A DNA stretch of 64,000 nt from Escherichia coli (GTDB lineage Bacteria > Pseudomonadota > Gammaproteobacteria > Enterobacterales > Enterobacteriaceae), in assembly GCF_003991155.1 (NCBI RefSeq), contig NZ_CP031293.1; one strand, given 5' to 3'. The number at the start of each line of letters is the position of its first letter. The first letter of the stretch is position 1. Positions 6,506-31,454 of the stretch are shown one piece after another. The translations under genes and the position numbers were made by a program. A model generated the notes under the pieces. That model was not told where the DNA came from, made no database searches, and was given only the letters and a program-made list of their open reading frames with translations.

Positions 6506-7543
6506 ATGGTCATCAACTGCGCCTTTATTGGCTTCGGCAAAAGCACCACCCGTTACCATCTGCCGTATGTACTTAACCGCAAGGATAGCTGGCATGTCGC
6601 GCATATTTTTCGCCGCCATGCGAAGCCGGAAGAACAGGCTCCCATTTACTCTCATATCCATTTCACCAGCGATCTCGACGAAGTGCTAAACGATCCCGAT
6701 GTTAAGCTGGTTGTCGTCTGCACCCACGCGGATAGCCATTTCGAATACGCGAAGCGCGCGCTGGAAGCCGGGAAAAATGTGCTGGTCGAAAAACCGTTCA
6801 CCCCGACGCTTGCCCAGGCGAAGGAGCTGTTTGAGTTGGCGAAAAGCAAAGGGCTGACCGTCACGCCGTATCAGAATCGTCGCTTTGATTCCTGCTTCCT
6901 GACGGCGAAAAAAGCGATTGAAAGCGGTAAGCTGGGAGAGATTGTTGAAGTGGAAAGCCATTTTGACTATTACCGCCCGGTGGCAGAAACCAAACCTGGG
7001 CTGCCGCAGGATGGCGCGTTCTATGGCCTTGGTGTGCATACCCTCGACCAGATTATCTCGCTGTTCGGTCGCCCGGATCACGTCGCTTATGACATCCGCA
7101 GCCTGCGTAATAAAGCCAATCCTGACGACACCTTCGAAGCGCAGCTGTTTTATGGCGATCTAAAAGCCATCGTCAAAACCAGCCATCTGGTGAAAATCGA
7201 TTATCCGAAATTTATCGTTCACGGTAAGAAAGGTTCGTTTATTAAATACGGTATCGACCAGCAGGAAACCAGCCTGAAGGCTAATATTATGCCGGGCGAA
7301 CCGGGATTCGCAGCGGATGATTCGGTCGGTGTGCTGGAGTATGTCAATGACGAGGGCGTGACGGTCAGAGAAGAGATGAAGCCGGAGGTGGGCGATTACG
7401 GGCGCGTTTATGATGCGTTGCATCAAACCATCACCAACGGTGCGCCAAATTACGTCAAGGAATCTGAAGTTCTTACCAATCTGGAAATCCTTGAACGCGG
7501 TTTTGAGCAAGCTTCTCCCTCCACAGTGACTCTCGCGAAGTAA
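6506..7543 (+). CDS. yhhX: Gfo/Idh/MocA-family oxidoreductase YhhX
   Basis: 345-aa ORF with an N-terminal Rossmann dinucleotide-binding motif (AFIGFGKSTTRYHLP). Confidence 0.9.
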   Translation: MVINCAFIGFGKSTTRYHLPYVLNRKDSWHVAHIFRRHAKPEEQAPIYSHIHFTSDLDEVLNDPDVKLVVVCTHADSHFEYAKRALEAGKNVLVEKPFTPTLAQAKELFELAKSKGLTVTPYQNRRFDSCFLTAKKAIESGKLGEIVEVESHFDYYRPVAETKPGLPQDGAFYGLGVHTLDQIISLFGRPDHVAYDIRSLRNKANPDDTFEAQLFYGDLKAIVKTSHLVKIDYPKFIVHGKKGSFIKYGIDQQETSLKANIMPGEPGFAADDSVGVLEYVNDEGVTVREEMKPEVGDYGRVYDALHQTITNGAPNYVKESEVLTNLEILERGFEQASPSTVTLAK

Positions 7544-7550
7544 GTTTGAT

Positions 7551-7589
7551 GACCCCTCGAATAGTTCAATTTTTTTGAACAGAGGGGTC
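7551..7589 (+). terminator. yhhX terminator hairpin
   Basis: Inverted repeat gacccctc ... gaggggtc followed by aatttt, directly after the yhhX stop. Confidence 0.6.
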
Positions 7590-7665
7590 AATTTTCACCC
7601 TCTATCATCCCAGGCTGATCGGGTCCACACTAAGCCCATCGAAATCATTCAGGGGGCGAATACAA

Positions 7666-8361
7666 ATGATCTACTTACGCAAAGCAAATGAACGTGGTCA
7701 TGCAAATCATGGCTGGCTGGACTCCTGGCATACTTTCTCTTTTGCCAACTACTACGACCCGAACTTTATGGGTTTCTCCGCGCTGCGCGTGATTAACGAC
7801 GACGTGATTGAAGCAGGGCAGGGCTTTGGCACTCACCCGCATAAAGATATGGAAATTTTGACCTACGTGCTGGAAGGTACTGTTGAGCACCAGGACAGCA
7901 TGGGCAATAAAGAGCAGGTTCCGGCGGGTGAGTTCCAGATTATGAGTGCGGGTACGGGTATCCGTCACTCTGAGTACAACCCAAGCAGCACCGAGCGTCT
8001 GCATCTGTATCAAATCTGGATCATGCCGGAAGAAAACGGCATCACGCCTCGCTATGAGCAGCGCCGTTTCGATGCCGTACAGGGCAAACAGCTGGTGCTC
8101 TCGCCGGATGCGCGAGATGGTTCGCTGAAAGTGCATCAGGATATGGAACTGTATCGTTGGGCATTGCTGAAAGATGAGCAGTCGGTGCATCAGATTGCCG
8201 CTGAACGCCGCGTCTGGATCCAGGTGGTGAAAGGCAATGTCACCATTAACGGCGTGAAAGCCTCGACCAGCGATGGTCTGGCAATCTGGGATGAGCAGGC
8301 AATCTCCATTCATGCGGATAGCGACAGCGAAGTGTTACTGTTCGATCTGCCGCCGGTTTAA
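7666..8361 (+). CDS. yhhW: pirin-like protein / quercetin 2,3-dioxygenase YhhW
   Basis: 231-aa cupin protein with the metal-binding HPH...E motif (GFGTHPHKDMEILTYVLEG). Confidence 0.9.
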   Translation: MIYLRKANERGHANHGWLDSWHTFSFANYYDPNFMGFSALRVINDDVIEAGQGFGTHPHKDMEILTYVLEGTVEHQDSMGNKEQVPAGEFQIMSAGTGIRHSEYNPSSTERLHLYQIWIMPEENGITPRYEQRRFDAVQGKQLVLSPDARDGSLKVHQDMELYRWALLKDEQSVHQIAAERRVWIQVVKGNVTINGVKASTSDGLAIWDEQAISIHADSDSEVLLFDLPPV

Positions 8362-8584
8362 AACTCAACGGCATCTTTGAAGCCTGCCTTTTTGCAGGCT
8401 TCCTCGCTCGCTCCGGTCGCGTGCTGATATACGCTTCCGGGGTTTTGCCGTGTCGTTAGCACAATGCGATGCAATTGATTTAGTGTATATCTAATAATTG
8501 TAAACAAGCACTGTTTTCCCCGGGAAGGTTCTGATGCGTCCGTGTTAAACTAAGAGAATCTATCTCTTTTGTACCTTCAGGACG

Positions 8585-9580
8585 ATGAAAAAGAAAAGAC
8601 CCGTACTTCAGGATGTGGCTGACCGTGTAGGCGTGACCAAAATGACGGTCAGCCGTTTTTTACGCAACCCGGAGCAGGTTTCCGTCGCTCTACGCGGCAA
8701 GATTGCCGCCGCTCTTGATGAACTGGGTTATATTCCCAATCGCGCGCCCGATATCCTCTCTAACGCCACCAGCCGGGCGATTGGCGTCCTGTTACCTTCT
8801 CTCACCAACCAGGTTTTTGCGGAAGTATTACGCGGAATCGAAAGCGTCACCGACGCGCACGGTTATCAGACCATGCTGGCCCACTACGGTTATAAACCGG
8901 AAATGGAGCAAGAACGCCTCGAATCCATGCTCTCCTGGAATATCGACGGCCTGATCCTCACTGAACGTACGCACACGCCGCGCACCTTAAAGATGATTGA
9001 AGTGGCGGGGATTCCAGTGGTGGAACTGATGGACAGCAAGTCGCCATGCCTCGATATCGCCGTCGGTTTTGATAACTTTGAAGCGGCACGCCAGATGACC
9101 ACCGCCATTATTGCTCGCGGGCATCGTCACATTGCCTATCTCGGCGCACGCCTCGACGAACGTACTATCATCAAACAGAAGGGATACGAACAGGCGATGC
9201 TGGATGCAGGCCTGGTGCCGTATAGCGTGATGGTCGAGCAATCTTCTTCTTACTCTTCCGGTATTGAACTGATTCGCCAGGCGCGGCGGGAATATCCGCA
9301 GCTGGATGGCGTGTTCTGTACTAATGATGATCTGGCGGTCGGCGCGGCGTTTGAATGTCAGCGTCTGGGGTTAAAAGTTCCTGACGATATGGCGATTGCC
9401 GGTTTCCATGGTCATGACATTGGTCAGGTGATGGAACCACGGTTGGCGAGCGTACTGACGCCGCGTGAGCGGATGGGCAGTATTGGCGCTGAACGCCTGC
9501 TGGCGCGTATTCGTGGCGAATCTGTGACACCGAAAATGTTAGATTTAGGTTTCACCTTGTCACCGGGCGGATCTATTTAA
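8585..9580 (+). CDS. gntR: gluconate repressor GntR (LacI family)
   Basis: 331 aa; N-terminal helix-turn-helix (VLQDVADRVGVTKMTVSRFL) and a periplasmic-binding-protein-like effector domain. Confidence 0.95.
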   Translation: MKKKRPVLQDVADRVGVTKMTVSRFLRNPEQVSVALRGKIAAALDELGYIPNRAPDILSNATSRAIGVLLPSLTNQVFAEVLRGIESVTDAHGYQTMLAHYGYKPEMEQERLESMLSWNIDGLILTERTHTPRTLKMIEVAGIPVVELMDSKSPCLDIAVGFDNFEAARQMTTAIIARGHRHIAYLGARLDERTIIKQKGYEQAMLDAGLVPYSVMVEQSSSYSSGIELIRQARREYPQLDGVFCTNDDLAVGAAFECQRLGLKVPDDMAIAGFHGHDIGQVMEPRLASVLTPRERMGSIGAERLLARIRGESVTPKMLDLGFTLSPGGSI

Positions 9581-24137: not shown

Positions 24138-26603
<2,466 letters not shown>

Positions 26604-26619
26604 GTTCGCTAAAAAACAG

Positions 26620-26648
26620 AACGGGGCCAAAAGGTCCCGTTTTTTTTC
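26620..26648 (+). terminator. glgP terminator
   Basis: Hairpin aacggggcc aaaa ggtcccgtt followed by a run of T. Confidence 0.7.
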
Positions 26649-26731
26649 GCCTTTATTTAGGAAAAGTGTCCAGAGGGGGCGAGGGTTATCGGGGAGTATA
26701 ATTTCGCCATTCAGCAAGAATGGAAAGAATA

Positions 26732-28237
26732 ATGCAAAACGGAAAATGGATTTTGACCTCGCTGGTAATGACTTTTTTTGGCATCCCCATACTGGCGCAA
26801 TTTTTGGCAGCGGTTGTTGCCATGCTGGGGGCCGGGCTTGCCGCTATTCTTGAGGTTTGCAATTTACTCTTTACGCCAACAATTTATCTTCTACTCAACG
26901 TCTTTATGCTGACGCTGGGGGCGATAATCATATTTTTCTCTGGTCGCGTGTGGACTGGTGATAGCGCACCAGAAAAAAGAGAAATAGCCGCCTGGCGACA
27001 ATGCTTTTTTCTCTTACCCGCGCTATTAACCCTGATTGGCTGGATAATCGCGCTACATCTGGCAGATTATCAACTTCGCCAGATGGGAGCCGGTTGGTTG
27101 GCAAACCTTATGCTTCCCTGGTTGGGCGTTTTTACAGTCTCATTCGTCGGTGGTGAGTACTGGTGGATAGTCATTATTCCCGTTGGCGCGCATATCAGTT
27201 TTTCACTGGGATACGGCTGGCCGACCAGACACCCTTTAACCGGCACCTCCGGTCTACGTTGCCGTAATTTACTTCTGTTCATTCTTCTCTTACTGGGTAT
27301 TGTCGCTGGTTATCAGGCTTATTTATATAAACAGCTTAATCCCGGCGTCGGTGTGCGTGAAAATATTGATACCTGGGCCTGGCGACCCGATAAACTTAAT
27401 AATCAACTGACGCCACTGCGTGGTAAACCACAAATTCAATTTACGCAAAACTGGCCGCGACTCGATGGCGCTACGGCGGCGTACCCCATTTATGCCTCTG
27501 CATTTTATGCATTAAGTGTAATACCAGAGGATTTTCACGTTTGGGATTATCTGGATAACTCTCGTACGCCAGAAGCATATAACAAAATCGTTAACGGTGA
27601 TGCCGATATTATTTTCGTGGCGCAACCTTCCGATGGGCAAAAAAAACGCGCTGAGAAATCGGGCGTCACTTTGCTGTACACGCCATTTGCCCGTGAAGCG
27701 TTTGTTTTCATCGTCAATGCGGATAATCCGGTTAATTCCCTGACTGAACAACAAGTGCGTGACATTTTTAGTGGCGAAATTACCAACTGGCGCACGGTTG
27801 GCGGTAAGGATCAGGAGATCCAGACCTGGCAACGCCCGGAAGACTCTGGCAGCCAGACAGTGATGCAATCACAGGTCATGAAAAATGTCCGCATGATCTC
27901 GCCGCAGGAAACCGAAGTGGCAAGCATGATGGAGGGAATGATTAAAGTCGTTGCCGAATACCGTAATACAAACAACGCAATAGGCTACACCTTCCGCTAT
28001 TACGCAACACAAATGAATGCCGATAAAAATATAAAACTGCTAGCGATTAACGGTATTGCACCGACTGCGGAAAATATTCGTAACGGCAAATATCCGTATA
28101 TCATCGATGCCTTTATGGTAACGCGGGAAAATACTACGTCAGAAACACAAAAACTGGTCGAATGGTTTTTAACGCCGCAGGGACAGAGTCTGGTGGAAGA
28201 TGTGGGCTATGTGCCGCTGTATCCAACAATGAAATAA
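26732..28237 (+). CDS. membrane-anchored PstS-like substrate-binding protein (N-terminal polytopic membrane domain fused to a C-terminal phosphate/oxyanion-binding-protein-like domain)
   Basis: About 200 aa of hydrophobic helices, then a binding-protein-like domain with an R-x-x-D-S-G-S-Q-T motif (QRPEDSGSQTVM) reminiscent of the PstS phosphate-binding loop; start taken at the ATG at 26732 (MQNGKW, GGAAAG upstream), though 26720 is also possible. K-12 has only a pseudogene remnant (yzgL) at this position, from memory. Confidence 0.65.
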   Translation: MQNGKWILTSLVMTFFGIPILAQFLAAVVAMLGAGLAAILEVCNLLFTPTIYLLLNVFMLTLGAIIIFFSGRVWTGDSAPEKREIAAWRQCFFLLPALLTLIGWIIALHLADYQLRQMGAGWLANLMLPWLGVFTVSFVGGEYWWIVIIPVGAHISFSLGYGWPTRHPLTGTSGLRCRNLLLFILLLLGIVAGYQAYLYKQLNPGVGVRENIDTWAWRPDKLNNQLTPLRGKPQIQFTQNWPRLDGATAAYPIYASAFYALSVIPEDFHVWDYLDNSRTPEAYNKIVNGDADIIFVAQPSDGQKKRAEKSGVTLLYTPFAREAFVFIVNADNPVNSLTEQQVRDIFSGEITNWRTVGGKDQEIQTWQRPEDSGSQTVMQSQVMKNVRMISPQETEVASMMEGMIKVVAEYRNTNNAIGYTFRYYATQMNADKNIKLLAINGIAPTAENIRNGKYPYIIDAFMVTRENTTSETQKLVEWFLTPQGQSLVEDVGYVPLYPTMK

Positions 28238-28262
28238 CGCTCGAGAGAAAGGAATCAGCGCA

Positions 28263-29255
28263 ATGAATAAATTCACCGGTGTTTTACTATTAGGTACGGC
28301 GCTACTGGCGGGATGTGTCGACCGGGAAGGGTACTATAACAGCGTCAGGGAAGAAGACAGCCATGGACTGACGTCTCTGCGGGGGCAACCTGAATTACGT
28401 TACAACGATGATTGGTCAAGATGGCCGAGAGTGTACGGCGCTACAGCCTTATACCCGCTGTATGCCTCCGCGTATTATGAATTAGTACCCGAGCCAAAAG
28501 ATAAGGATCGAACCTCGCTGGCCTGGCAGGCGTATGGTTTGCAACAAACCCGAACAGCTGAAGCCTACGATAGTCTGATTAAGGGTACCGCGACGGTTAT
28601 TTTTGTTGCACAACCGTCGGAAGGACAGAAAAAACGTGCAGAAGAAGCAGGTGTTAAACTCAAATATACCGCTTTCGCCCGCGAAGCCTTTGTCTTTATC
28701 GTTGATATCAAAAACCCGGTTAATTCACTTAGCGAACAGCAGGTCAAAGACATTTTTAGCGGTAAAGTGAGTCGCTGGAATAAAGTGGGCGGCGGTGACG
28801 AAAGTATAAAAGTCTGGCAGCGGCCAGAAGATTCTGGAAGCCAAACGGTTATGAAGGGACTGGTTATGCAAGATACTCCAATGCTGCCAGCCAAAAAATC
28901 CACTGTTATCGATCTTATGGGCGGTTTAATTACCGAAGTCGCCGACTACCAAAATACACCATCTTCTATTGGATACACCTTCTACTATTACGTCACACGT
29001 ATGAATGACAATATGCTCAAAATGCGCAAACAGATCAAACTGCTGGCTATAAATGGCGTTGCACCTACAGAGGAAAATATCCGTAACGGCACTTATCCGT
29101 ACATAATTCATGCTTATATGGTGACGCACGAAAACCCTACGCTGGAAACACAGAAATTCGTCGACTGGTTTTTAAGCCCGCAGGGACAGCAATTGGTAGA
29201 GGATGTGGGCTATGTGCCGATTTATGACGCATCATCCGAATCATCAGGACAATAA
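28263..29255 (+). CDS. PstS-like substrate-binding lipoprotein, paralog of the C-terminal domain of the upstream gene
   Basis: 330 aa; lipoprotein signal with lipobox (MNKFTGVLLLGTALLAGC); shares long near-identical blocks with the upstream protein (VIFVAQPSEGQKKRAEEAGV, QRPEDSGSQTVM, KLLAINGVAPTEENIRNGTYPYII, VEDVGYVPIY); AAGGAA ribosome-binding site. Confidence 0.7.
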   Translation: MNKFTGVLLLGTALLAGCVDREGYYNSVREEDSHGLTSLRGQPELRYNDDWSRWPRVYGATALYPLYASAYYELVPEPKDKDRTSLAWQAYGLQQTRTAEAYDSLIKGTATVIFVAQPSEGQKKRAEEAGVKLKYTAFAREAFVFIVDIKNPVNSLSEQQVKDIFSGKVSRWNKVGGGDESIKVWQRPEDSGSQTVMKGLVMQDTPMLPAKKSTVIDLMGGLITEVADYQNTPSSIGYTFYYYVTRMNDNMLKMRKQIKLLAINGVAPTEENIRNGTYPYIIHAYMVTHENPTLETQKFVDWFLSPQGQQLVEDVGYVPIYDASSESSGQ

Positions 29256-29257
29256 AG

Positions 29258-29863
29258 ATGAATAAAATCAGACTTTATATTCCTCCGTTAATTCTTGGTT
29301 TTGTTATTGTGCCGTTGTTGGTGTGGCCGACGGTGGTTGCGCTGGCTGCTTGTGTTATCACGCTGAGTTTTATGGGAGAAATACTGTTCTCTATCCCGCT
29401 CATGTTCAGGAGTATTTCACTTCTGGAATTCCAACTTGGGTTATTGGCTGAATATGCACTTTTTTTCTGTGCCATGTGTTGCGTTGGTTGGCAATTTTCT
29501 TGCAGAACTCAATCTGAACTGAAAAGCAGACTCCATTGTTGGTTGGTATTTGCACCAGTTTATTTCTGGTTGCTCCTGTGGAATATCATTTTCTATGTCG
29601 CGCCAGCGCAAATTGCTTTGCTGGAAAATATGCGCAATTTCTTTCTGACCATTGTCTGGTTACCCCTGAATTTTTTTCAATTTGGGTCTCAGCCGTGGAC
29701 TGACTTTATCGGTCCGATAAGCGCCCAGCTTGGTTTTGCATTGGGATATTATTGCCAGTGGCGTAGCAAAAATAGAAGTCAGAGGAAGAAGTGGGGCGAG
29801 TGGGTAACGTGCTTAAGTTTGGCGATTTTAGCTCAGGGGCCGTTATTCAATTATTTACAATGA
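29258..29863 (+). CDS. hypothetical polytopic membrane protein
   Basis: 201-aa ORF with about five hydrophobic segments, 2 bp after the lipoprotein gene (probable operon); no recognisable family from sequence alone. Confidence 0.5.
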   Translation: MNKIRLYIPPLILGFVIVPLLVWPTVVALAACVITLSFMGEILFSIPLMFRSISLLEFQLGLLAEYALFFCAMCCVGWQFSCRTQSELKSRLHCWLVFAPVYFWLLLWNIIFYVAPAQIALLENMRNFFLTIVWLPLNFFQFGSQPWTDFIGPISAQLGFALGYYCQWRSKNRSQRKKWGEWVTCLSLAILAQGPLFNYLQ

Positions 29864-29883: not shown

Positions 29884-29908
29884 GCCCGGTTGCACTTCAC
29901 AACCGGGC
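29884..29908. terminator. hairpin between the membrane-protein gene and the glpD 3' end
   Basis: Inverted repeat gcccggttg ... caaccgggc between convergent genes. Confidence 0.5.
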
Positions 29909-29915
29909 ATCATCC

Positions 29916-31421
29916 TTACGACGCCAGCGATAACCTCTGCTGCGTATACTCCACCAGCCACTGACTCACACGAGATTGTTGATCCGCATTCAGCCACATG
30001 CCTTGTTTTGTGCGACGCCACAGGGCATCGTCGGCGCGACGGACCCATTCGTGATCCACCAGGTATTTCAGTTCCGCTTCGTAGAACTCATGACCGAAAT
30101 CTTCCCCGAGGTCGCTTATCGCTCCCGCGTTGCCGAGCAGCAGTTCGCTGTTGCTGCCGTAAGTGCGCGCGTAGTGACGTGCCAGCGATTCGGTCAGGAA
30201 CGGGTAACGGCGGCGCAGGCGGGCGGCGTAATCGTCACGGTCGCCTTCAATGGCACCACCCGGCAGCACGCTCTCTTTCGTCCACGTCGGACCAATGCCC
30301 TGATAATATGGCGTCAGTTTTTCCAGCGCATGTTCTGCCAGTTTTCGGTAGGTGGTCAGCTTACCGCCGAATACCGACAGCAGCGGTGCTTTGCCGTTTT
30401 CATCATGGATATCAAGGGTGTAATCACGGGTAATAGCCTGCGGCGAGTCGGACTCATCATCACACAGCGGACGCACACCGGAATAGGTCCAGACGATATC
30501 GTCACGGCTAAGCTGTTTTTTAAAGTGCGCGTTATACACTTTCAGCAGGTAATTGATTTCACTCTCTTCAATCTTCACCGCTTTCGGATCGCCTTTGTAT
30601 TCCACATCGGTGGTGCCGATGATGGAAAACTCGTCCATCCACGGGATCACGAACACAATACGTTTATCTTCGTTTTGCAGAATGTAGGCTTGCTTCTGGG
30701 TATGCACGCGTGGCACCACAATATGGCTGCCTTTGATCAGGCGAATGCCATAAGGCGAAGGCAGATGCATCCCCTCGTCGAAGAACTGTTTCACCCACGG
30801 GCCGGTGGCGTTCACCAGGCCGCGCGCCTGCCAGGTGCATTTTTTGCCGGTATCGATATCTTCTGCTTCCACAATCCACAGGCCGTTTTCGCGGCGAGCA
30901 GAAGTGGCACGAGTACGAGTAAGCACTTCACCGCCTTTACGTACCACCATCTGGGCGTTGGCGAGTACCAGACGGGCGTCGTCTACCCAACAGTCAGAAT
31001 ATTCGAATCCGCGCTTAATTTCCGGTTTTAACACTGAGTTTGCGCCAAAACGCAAACCGGTTGATCCCGGCAGGCTGGTGCGTTTACCCAGATGATCGTA
31101 CATAAACAGACCAATGCGAATCATCCACGCCGGGCGCAGATGCGGACGATGTGGCAGGCGAAAACGCATCGGGAAGGCGATATGCGGAGCCATTTTCAGC
31201 AACACTTCACGTTCAGCCAGCGCCTCGCTGACCAGGCGGAATTCATAGTGCTCAAGGTAGCGCAGGCCACCGTGAATGAGTTTTGAACTGGCGGAAGAGG
31301 TCGCGCAAGCGAGATCCTGCGCCTCCAGCATCAGCACGGATAAACCGCGTCCAGCGGCGTCTGCCGCGATACCAGCACCATTGATGCCGCCACCTATCAC
31401 AATCAGATCTTTGGTTTCCAT
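29916..31421 (-). CDS. glpD: aerobic glycerol-3-phosphate dehydrogenase
   Basis: 501-aa product starting METKDLIVIGGGINGAGIAADAAGRG (FAD-binding GxGxxG); the track's ORF is 5 codons longer. Confidence 0.95.
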   Translation of the reverse strand: METKDLIVIGGGINGAGIAADAAGRGLSVLMLEAQDLACATSSASSKLIHGGLRYLEHYEFRLVSEALAEREVLLKMAPHIAFPMRFRLPHRPHLRPAWMIRIGLFMYDHLGKRTSLPGSTGLRFGANSVLKPEIKRGFEYSDCWVDDARLVLANAQMVVRKGGEVLTRTRATSARRENGLWIVEAEDIDTGKKCTWQARGLVNATGPWVKQFFDEGMHLPSPYGIRLIKGSHIVVPRVHTQKQAYILQNEDKRIVFVIPWMDEFSIIGTTDVEYKGDPKAVKIEESEINYLLKVYNAHFKKQLSRDDIVWTYSGVRPLCDDESDSPQAITRDYTLDIHDENGKAPLLSVFGGKLTTYRKLAEHALEKLTPYYQGIGPTWTKESVLPGGAIEGDRDDYAARLRRRYPFLTESLARHYARTYGSNSELLLGNAGAISDLGEDFGHEFYEAELKYLVDHEWVRRADDALWRRTKQGMWLNADQQSRVSQWLVEYTQQRLSLAS

Positions 31422-31454
31422 GCTGCCCTCATTCACTTTCGTTAAAGTTCATAA

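Follow-up and report, generated by a model that had tools for sequence, protein, structure and literature searches.

A PstS-fold binding protein with a membrane domain of its own between glgP and glpD of Escherichia coli: a candidate phosphate or oxyanion receptor outside the ABC importers

Introduction

PstS-type proteins are usually understood only as the receptors of ATP-binding cassette (ABC) phosphate importers. Here we describe three genes, lying between glgP and glpD in a 64,000-nt window of Escherichia coli (NZ_CP031293.1; the window is this whole stretch, and coordinates are positions in it), in which a PstS-type fold is combined with a polytopic membrane domain. Gene 1 encodes a fusion of the membrane domain and a binding domain; gene 2 encodes a lipoprotein that has only the binding domain, and gene 3 a small membrane protein. 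These genes are already catalogued, but they are mislabelled as components of ABC transporters (“phosphate ABC transporter substrate-binding protein”). Two things are new: the finding that gene 3 and the membrane domain of gene 1 are homologous, and that membrane domain itself, which was previously undescribed. We tentatively propose that the cluster encodes a periplasmic receptor for phosphate or a related oxyanion that acts through its own membrane domain.

The PstS receptors of PstSCAB, including that of E. coli and the “ptsS_2” group (Clostridium perfringens 4GD5/4Q8R, Borrelia 4N13 and Synechocystis 9L8J), share with genes 1 and 2 a type II fold (template modelling (TM) score up to 0.79), the Pfam family PBP_like_2, Thr10, Arg135, an acidic partner at position 137 and the Ser-Gly-Thr/Ser loop. 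However, genes 1 and 2 score under the NCBIfam cut-off for PstS, have a non-acidic equivalent of Asp56, lack a Pho box, come with a polytopic membrane domain (in the same chain or as a partner), and are never linked to pstCAB or phoU. In ABC importers of the OpuA and GlnPQ type the binding domain is fused to the permease, and gene 1 resembles them in having its substrate-binding domain covalently attached to a polytopic membrane domain; in contrast to theirs, this membrane domain matches no ABC permease or other Pfam family, and no ATPase gene is present. The TRAP and TTT systems are secondary transporters dependent on a binding protein, and like them the cluster has a binding protein and membrane proteins without an ATPase. 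Nevertheless, it has no 12-helix large subunit, its binding domain is of the PstS type and not DctP or TctC, and comparison of the gene 3 model with TRAP small permeases gave only noise (E >5, TM-score about 0.2). Finally, gene 2 recalls the periplasmic lipoprotein immunity proteins of type VI secretion systems (T6SS) and Rhs, since it is an exported lipoprotein with Salmonella relatives directly after Rhs toxin ends, whereas there is no cognate toxin in the window, where gene 1 lies upstream of gene 2, and its small-ligand pocket is invariant. To our knowledge, no immunity family with a PstS fold has been described.

Results

Gene 3 is a relative of the membrane domain of gene 1

The first-pass annotation of this stretch, made from the letters alone, described gene 3 as a small polytopic membrane protein and a partner of the two binding proteins, with no link to the membrane domain of gene 1. 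When profiles of homologues were compared with hhalign, gene 3 aligned with the membrane domain (residues 1-212 in the gene 1 family) with a probability of 98.1% and an E of 1.1e-13 over 167 columns, and the real pair scored 86.6 as against 20.9 for a reversed target and at most 25 for 14 column or block shuffles. The homology is visible only by profile-profile comparison, direct BLASTP of gene 3 with the N-terminus of gene 1 being not significant. Similarly, when the AlphaFold model of gene 3 was compared with AFDB50, the N-terminal domains of fused proteins of this family were its only matches. Gene 3 is thus a paralogue of the membrane domain of gene 1 and not a membrane protein of separate origin. 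On this profile evidence, the cluster reads as one fused and one split copy of one two-module unit. Neither gene 3 nor the membrane domain has a Pfam family, NCBIfam returned only a sub-threshold match at chance level, and no structural relative of the membrane domain was found outside its own family.

The membrane domain occurs almost only with a PstS-type binding domain. Its profile, run against 1.84 billion cluster representatives, retrieved only 145 proteins, and PBP_like_2 is present in 41 of the 51 matches that were scanned (mostly picked among those of about 470-550 aa), the rest being free membrane domains, fragments and noise. Fused proteins are found in Enterobacterales and Brachymonas, to which a genome scan adds Budvicia, Planococcaceae, Viridibacillus and a planctomycete; relatives in Ruminococcus have a single N-terminal helix as anchor. 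At the glgP-glpD site of Pseudocitrobacter cyperus (locus L018, 6001-8057), the gene for a lipoprotein binding protein overlaps that for a 351-aa protein, which joins the membrane domain to a degenerate binding domain with GATA changed and the RPEDSGSQT region deleted. This arrangement looks like an intermediate between the fused and the split states.

Other arrangements of the family were seen as well. In E. coli TA054 (L100/L101, 6486-9981) the fused gene is followed by two more binding-domain genes in a row, and Intestinirhabdus alba (L026, 208-3382) has two tandem fused genes; both arrays are local expansions of the family. A ruv gene, ruvC at one locus and ruvB at the other, immediately precedes a fused gene in Salmonella (L010, 6449-8497) and in Brachymonas (L013, 5938-8503), an adjacency in two unrelated genomes that is probably a coincidence.

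Both binding proteins appear to keep most of the PstS anion pocket

The first-pass annotation read gene 1 as a polytopic membrane domain of about 200 aa joined to a PstS-like domain with an anion-binding loop, placed both binding domains in a phosphate-binding family and took gene 2 for a lipoprotein, and all of this holds. Pfam PBP_like_2 (PF12849) matches residues 249-485 of gene 1 with an E of 2e-31, and residues 94-306 of gene 2 with an E of 1.6e-29; the loop reads R-P-E-D-S-G-S-Q-T in both. The nearest solved sequences are the PstS proteins of Borrelia, Clostridium perfringens, Lactobacillus, Streptococcus, Vibrio and Synechocystis, and identity to E. coli PstS is about 17-23%. The AlphaFold model of gene 1 is of high confidence (predicted local distance difference test score 89, predicted TM-score 0.79) and can be superposed on solved structures of these PstS proteins; in a Foldseek search of solved structures its top 38 matches are all phosphate-binding proteins (E down to 7e-15), with target-normalised TM-scores of 0.77-0.79 to solved PstS structures.

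Pocket residues were mapped by aligning the family on E. coli PstS from MG1655, with conservation taken from 46 fused proteins and 26 lipoproteins. PstS Arg135, Ser139 and Thr141 correspond to R372, S376 and S378, invariant in fused proteins and lipoproteins alike; Thr10 and Gly140 correspond to T252 and G377, kept in at least 90% of the fused proteins and with invariant equivalents in the lipoproteins. In addition, Asp137 corresponds to E374, Glu being the majority residue, and Ser38 probably to the nearly invariant T283. By this alignment, the PstS anion pocket would be kept in both binding proteins except for Asp56. Because the pocket residues are mostly kept, a phosphate or phosphoryl ligand is likely; for both domains the best candidates are orthophosphate and groups close to it, phosphoryl or oxyanion.

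The signal peptide of gene 2 ends in a lipobox (MNKFTGVLLLGTALLAG before the C, that is, LLAG then C) whose G17 and C18 are nearly invariant (at least 90%) in the lipoprotein clade. The residue at +2 is Val and not Asp; by the classical +2 rule, gene 2 would be an outer-membrane lipoprotein with a linker of about 35 residues.

Gene 2 is an old lineage

Direct alignment of the two binding domains gives 59% identity over 286 residues (E 3e-118), which bears out the paralogy that the first-pass annotation had seen in their shared blocks. A recent date for the tandem duplication that it suggested is rejected by a neighbour-joining tree, in which all true lipoprotein forms make up one clade, nested among the enterobacterial fused proteins and including members from Salmonella and other genera. 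Since this clade is monophyletic and crosses genera, gene 2 represents an old lineage and not a fresh tandem copy. As a separate observation, the 3' parts of genes 1 and 2 (28025-28222 and 29028-29225) share 78% DNA identity over 198 nt, above the expectation from 59% protein identity; this may come from strong constraint or from past gene conversion.

The three genes are constrained and their alleles are old

All three genes are under purifying selection, with pairwise ratios of non-synonymous to synonymous divergence (dN/dS) of 0.12-0.30 (gene 1), 0.10 (gene 2) and 0.20-0.36 (gene 3). Between divergent allele pairs, the dS of gene 1 is 0.26-0.43 and that of gene 3 is 0.34-0.86, as compared with 0.02-0.15 in the 3' half of glgP and 0.09-0.17 in glpD. 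Thus, the genes are constrained, yet their alleles greatly exceed the chromosome around them in age. Since dN/dS is low while dS is high, the divergence of the alleles cannot be put down to diversifying selection. The dS of the flanks themselves (up to 0.15-0.17 between strains in glgP and glpD) looks raised near the island, which would fit hitch-hiking with the old alleles.

The locus varies across E. coli and the Enterobacteriaceae

Presence was scored at a coverage of at least 80% in 5426 complete E. coli genomes. Gene 1 was found in 3346 of them (62%), gene 3 in 3869 (71%) and gene 2 in 884, among them BL21(DE3), O157:H7 and O55:H7. The K-12 locus has, as the first-pass annotation stated, only a remnant: the 222-bp yzgL pseudogene, a stub that corresponds to the 5' end of gene 1. 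What lies between genes 1 and 3 is a swappable cassette, which in most E. coli holds unrelated cytoplasmic proteins, namely a 255-aa cytoplasmic protein in ST131 and a “YbbD family” protein together with the same 255-aa protein in other strains. The 255-aa protein and gene 2 end in the same residues (YDASSESSG), which marks the junction of the swap. In the Enterobacteriaceae, the fused gene follows glgP, either directly or past an inserted block (Salmonella), and is itself followed by variable cargo, such as extra copies of the binding domain or the membrane domain, a helicase-like gene and small periplasmic proteins. Carriage of the family by plasmids or phages was effectively absent. In EDL933, the locus is probably O-island 133 (OI-133). 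As a side observation, the island of Superficieibacter sp. (L021, 11574-14381) has an insertion between the fused gene and the cassette proteins that encodes a helicase-like protein of 935 aa with a Walker A motif, which suggests that the site is a general integration hotspot.

The neighbourhood holds no transporter genes

In agreement with the first-pass annotation, there is no ABC permease or ATPase gene at the locus, nor is there one at 33 related loci. PstC was not found within 7-10 kb at any of these 33, although use of a distant pstCAB is possible. Beyond the glgP/glpD synteny there is no conserved neighbour, and none of phosphate metabolism in particular. A PPK2 gene adjoins a family gene in Leclercia and lies nearby in Brachymonas. 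With PADLOC, the three genes and the two cassette proteins remained without a match even at an E of 0.1, and neither Pfam and NCBIfam for the cassette proteins nor NCBIfam for the neighbours in the Salmonella arrays gave anything useful.

In a screen, deletion of OI-133 from EDL933 lowered type III secretion (PMC3378721), a result repeated in a review; we found no follow-up of this phenotype in the literature. The PPK2 neighbours and the OI-133 phenotype are weak links, to phosphate and to a phenotype respectively. Literature searches on yzgL, PstS-type immunity and the locus tags returned nothing functional beyond array and screen mentions.

Layout of the locus

The window shows the gene order of the E. 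coli 76-min region: glgA, glgP, three plus-strand open reading frames, then the convergent glpD, glpE, glpG and glpR. The three frames are intact and tightly spaced (25 nt, then 2 nt), as first annotated (Table 1). Their G+C content is 0.42-0.49, against 0.51-0.58 in the flanks, and a 3.3-kb stretch is 100% identical to strain 2016C-3878.

The glgP terminator parts glgP from the cluster, so that the cluster needs a promoter of its own within 26650-26720; the sole sigma-70-like match found by a promoter search is weak and at chance level. The hairpin between gene 3 and glpD is probably a bidirectional terminator and the end of the operon. A GGA/AGGA motif precedes each of the three genes and, together with the terminator hairpins and the short gaps, this indicates that they form a single operon. 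No Rfam element matched in the cluster. For the start of gene 1, the RefSeq annotation pipeline (PGAP) uses an ATA at 26729, and in-frame ATGs lie at 26720, where the reading frame opens, and at 26732. The latter, which has GGAAAG upstream and was the choice of the first-pass annotation, seems more plausible than the ATA.

Table 1. Positions of the genes and sequence features of the cluster and its flanks in the window.
Feature	Position	Strand	Remarks
glgP	24156-26603		upstream flank
rho-independent terminator of glgP	26613-26650	+	GC hairpin and T-run; read from sequence
gene 1, membrane domain fused to PstS-like binding domain	26720/26732-28237	+	505/501 aa
polytopic membrane domain of gene 1	26732-27340	+	residues ~1-206 (505-aa numbering); six hydrophobic helices; no Pfam match
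PstS-type (PBP_like_2) binding domain of gene 1	27407-28234	+	residues ~230-505
anion-binding loop of gene 1, R372-P-E-D-S-G-S-Q-T380	27833-27859	+	R372, S376, S378, Q379 invariant
gene 2, lipoprotein with binding domain alone	28263-29255	+	330 aa
lipobox L-L-A-G-C (Cys18) of gene 2	28302-28316	+	read from sequence
anion-binding loop of gene 2, R187-P-E-D-S-G-S-Q-T195	28821-28847	+	R187, S191, G192, S193, Q194 invariant
gene 3, free-standing membrane-domain paralogue	29258-29863	+	201 aa; starts 2 nt past gene 2 stop codon
GC-rich hairpin between convergent gene 3 and glpD	29884-29908	.	11-pair stem; strong
glpD	29916-31436	-	convergent

Discussion

Our preferred reading, whose chance we would put a little below even, is that these genes encode a non-ABC periplasmic phosphate or oxyanion receptor that acts through its own membrane domain. 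The PstS-type domain would bind orthophosphate or a related phosphoryl or oxyanion group in the periplasm, where we infer the binding domain of gene 1 to lie, and the ligand-loaded domain would then dock on its own kind of membrane domain, a partner that is most likely because no ABC permease or ATPase is linked to the family anywhere. The output could take one of two forms. In sensing, the membrane domain would relay the occupancy state to other membrane proteins; in scavenging, it would keep the ligand at the membrane and pass it on to transporters whose genes lie in other places.

A number of observations weigh against such a receptor. With regard to the binding domains, their scores with the NCBIfam PstS model TIGR02136 are 129.5 bits (gene 1) and 125.1 bits (gene 2), under the curated cut-off of 206.6, despite which the PGAP name of both proteins is “PstS family”. 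Moreover, the equivalent of Asp56 is not acidic, being Ala, Gln or Ser according to the alignment used, so that the ligand specificity may differ from that of PstS, and a search for a Pho box at the cluster found none. With regard to the membrane domain, K/R-rich loops are found at the N-terminus and at residues 79-92 and 169-182, and given the six hydrophobic segments the last two of these loops leave a self-consistent topology only if one segment is re-entrant; we propose that the fourth would have to be, which would place all the K/R-rich loops in the cytoplasm and the binding domain in the periplasm. Few of its residues are conserved (some prolines and tryptophans, G75, R93 and Q199), and they include no catalytic-looking set; with so few conserved polar residues a scaffold would fit, and there is no hint of a conduction path or of a signalling output. 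No cytoplasmic output domain is present. Finally, many genomes have gene 3 without gene 2, so that the split pair is not obligatory; PPK2 occurs at only 2 of the 33 related loci; and relatives of gene 2 occupy toxin-immunity positions in Salmonella.

The cluster could also be framed as a previously undescribed two-module envelope system, being either a device that depends on a binding protein and has no ABC or TRAP partner, or a PstS-fold module of immunity or defence, and this framing we consider doubtful. In its immunity or defence version, the glgP-glpD island would be an orphan-immunity cluster against Rhs/T6SS toxins.

Immunity against interbacterial toxins, in which the PstS-fold lipoprotein, and perhaps the membrane-bound forms, would protect the periplasm or the inner membrane and the island would be an orphan-immunity cluster, is a serious rival, even if we judge it unlikely; it is possibly true of the lipoprotein branch only. 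Two lipoprotein loci of Salmonella enterica speak for it, the genes being there in the canonical position of an immunity gene. In the first (L102, AAOLBB010000004.1), an orphan Rhs C-terminal toxin (7541-8456) ends 56 nt before the gene 2 homologue (8512-9483); this Rhs end, which has a pagN-like gene and fadE nearby, runs from DPIGL to DPLGL and on into a C-terminal domain marked by His...Asn-Cys motifs. In the second (L016, DBHMGN010000006.1; 2500-4520 and 5986-7830), two PstS-like lipoprotein genes lie in an Rhs orphan array, where one of the copies is preceded by an Rhs C-terminal toxin that is frameshifted and whose motifs are weakly colinear (BLASTP E 0.16), 5' fragments of Rhs of the PAAR type (MSGKPAARQNDMT...) come after both, and HEAT-repeat, Ntox34 and HExxH genes lie around them. 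These are, however, the only two positional cases known. No toxin gene or Rhs fragment lies in the cluster of the window, and the L102 toxin end has no sequence match in the PDB and is absent from the 5426 E. coli genomes.

The variable parts of the island point in the same direction, as PGAP “YbbD family” proteins occupy the cassette slot of E. coli, YbbD_head proteins are found at related loci in Salmonella and Klebsiella, K-12 ybbD lies in the rhsD orphan region, and a homologue of one cassette protein, at 34% identity, lies in the Salmonella Rhs array. Nevertheless, the “YbbD family” protein has no tblastn match to the K-12 ybbD region, the link being one of family naming only. Similarly, the presence/absence polymorphism, the deep alleles (dS 0.26-0.86 in divergent pairs against 0.02-0.17 in the flanks) and the single origin of the lipoprotein clade, which has moved between loci, would suit immunity genes. 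In contrast, the low dN/dS shows no trace of diversifying selection, and the residues of the anion pocket do not vary within the lipoprotein clade, which argues for a conserved small ligand rather than fast-changing toxin partners. In addition, members of the fused family are found as single genes in surroundings that have nothing in common, Firmicutes and Planctomycetes among them, and no PADLOC match was obtained.

Genes 1 and 2 might instead be accessory tethered receptors that feed a PstCAB encoded elsewhere, with the membrane domain as a mere anchor and gene 3 as a leftover, a role that we find improbable. The PstS fold and the mostly kept pocket would suit it, the type of anchor does vary, being a single N-terminal helix in the distant Ruminococcus relatives, and several PstS paralogues exist in other bacteria (PDB entries PstS-1, PstS-2 and PstS-3). 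Binding proteins tethered by a lipid or a helix are, moreover, common in Gram-positive bacteria and archaea. However, the architecture of the membrane domain is conserved from Proteobacteria to Planctomycetes, far beyond the needs of an anchor, and 71% of E. coli genomes maintain a free membrane-domain gene, which is under purifying selection. The absence of a Pho box and the loss of the Asp56 equivalent count against an accessory of Pst too, and the low identity to E. coli PstS makes it doubtful that the surface docking on PstC/PstA is conserved. That the locus is decaying accessory DNA without a current function is very improbable: K-12 and many other strains have lost most of it, and truncated and split copies are common, but none of the three reading frames is broken, alleles that differ by a dS of up to 0.86 have a dN/dS of 0.10-0.36, and gene 1 is syntenic across several genera.

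Independently of which role applies, this family combines a PstS fold with a private membrane domain in the absence of transporter genes, and its gene 1 is syntenic across the Enterobacteriaceae. The system is easy to test, as BL21(DE3) and O157:H7 carry all three genes and K-12 is a natural null. If the lipoprotein branch were to provide immunity to Rhs toxins, it would represent a new immunity fold. If, as we tentatively prefer, the cluster senses or scavenges phosphate independently of Pst, a missing piece would be added to the phosphate biology of the envelope, and this may also explain the type III secretion defect associated with O-island 133 of enterohaemorrhagic E. coli.

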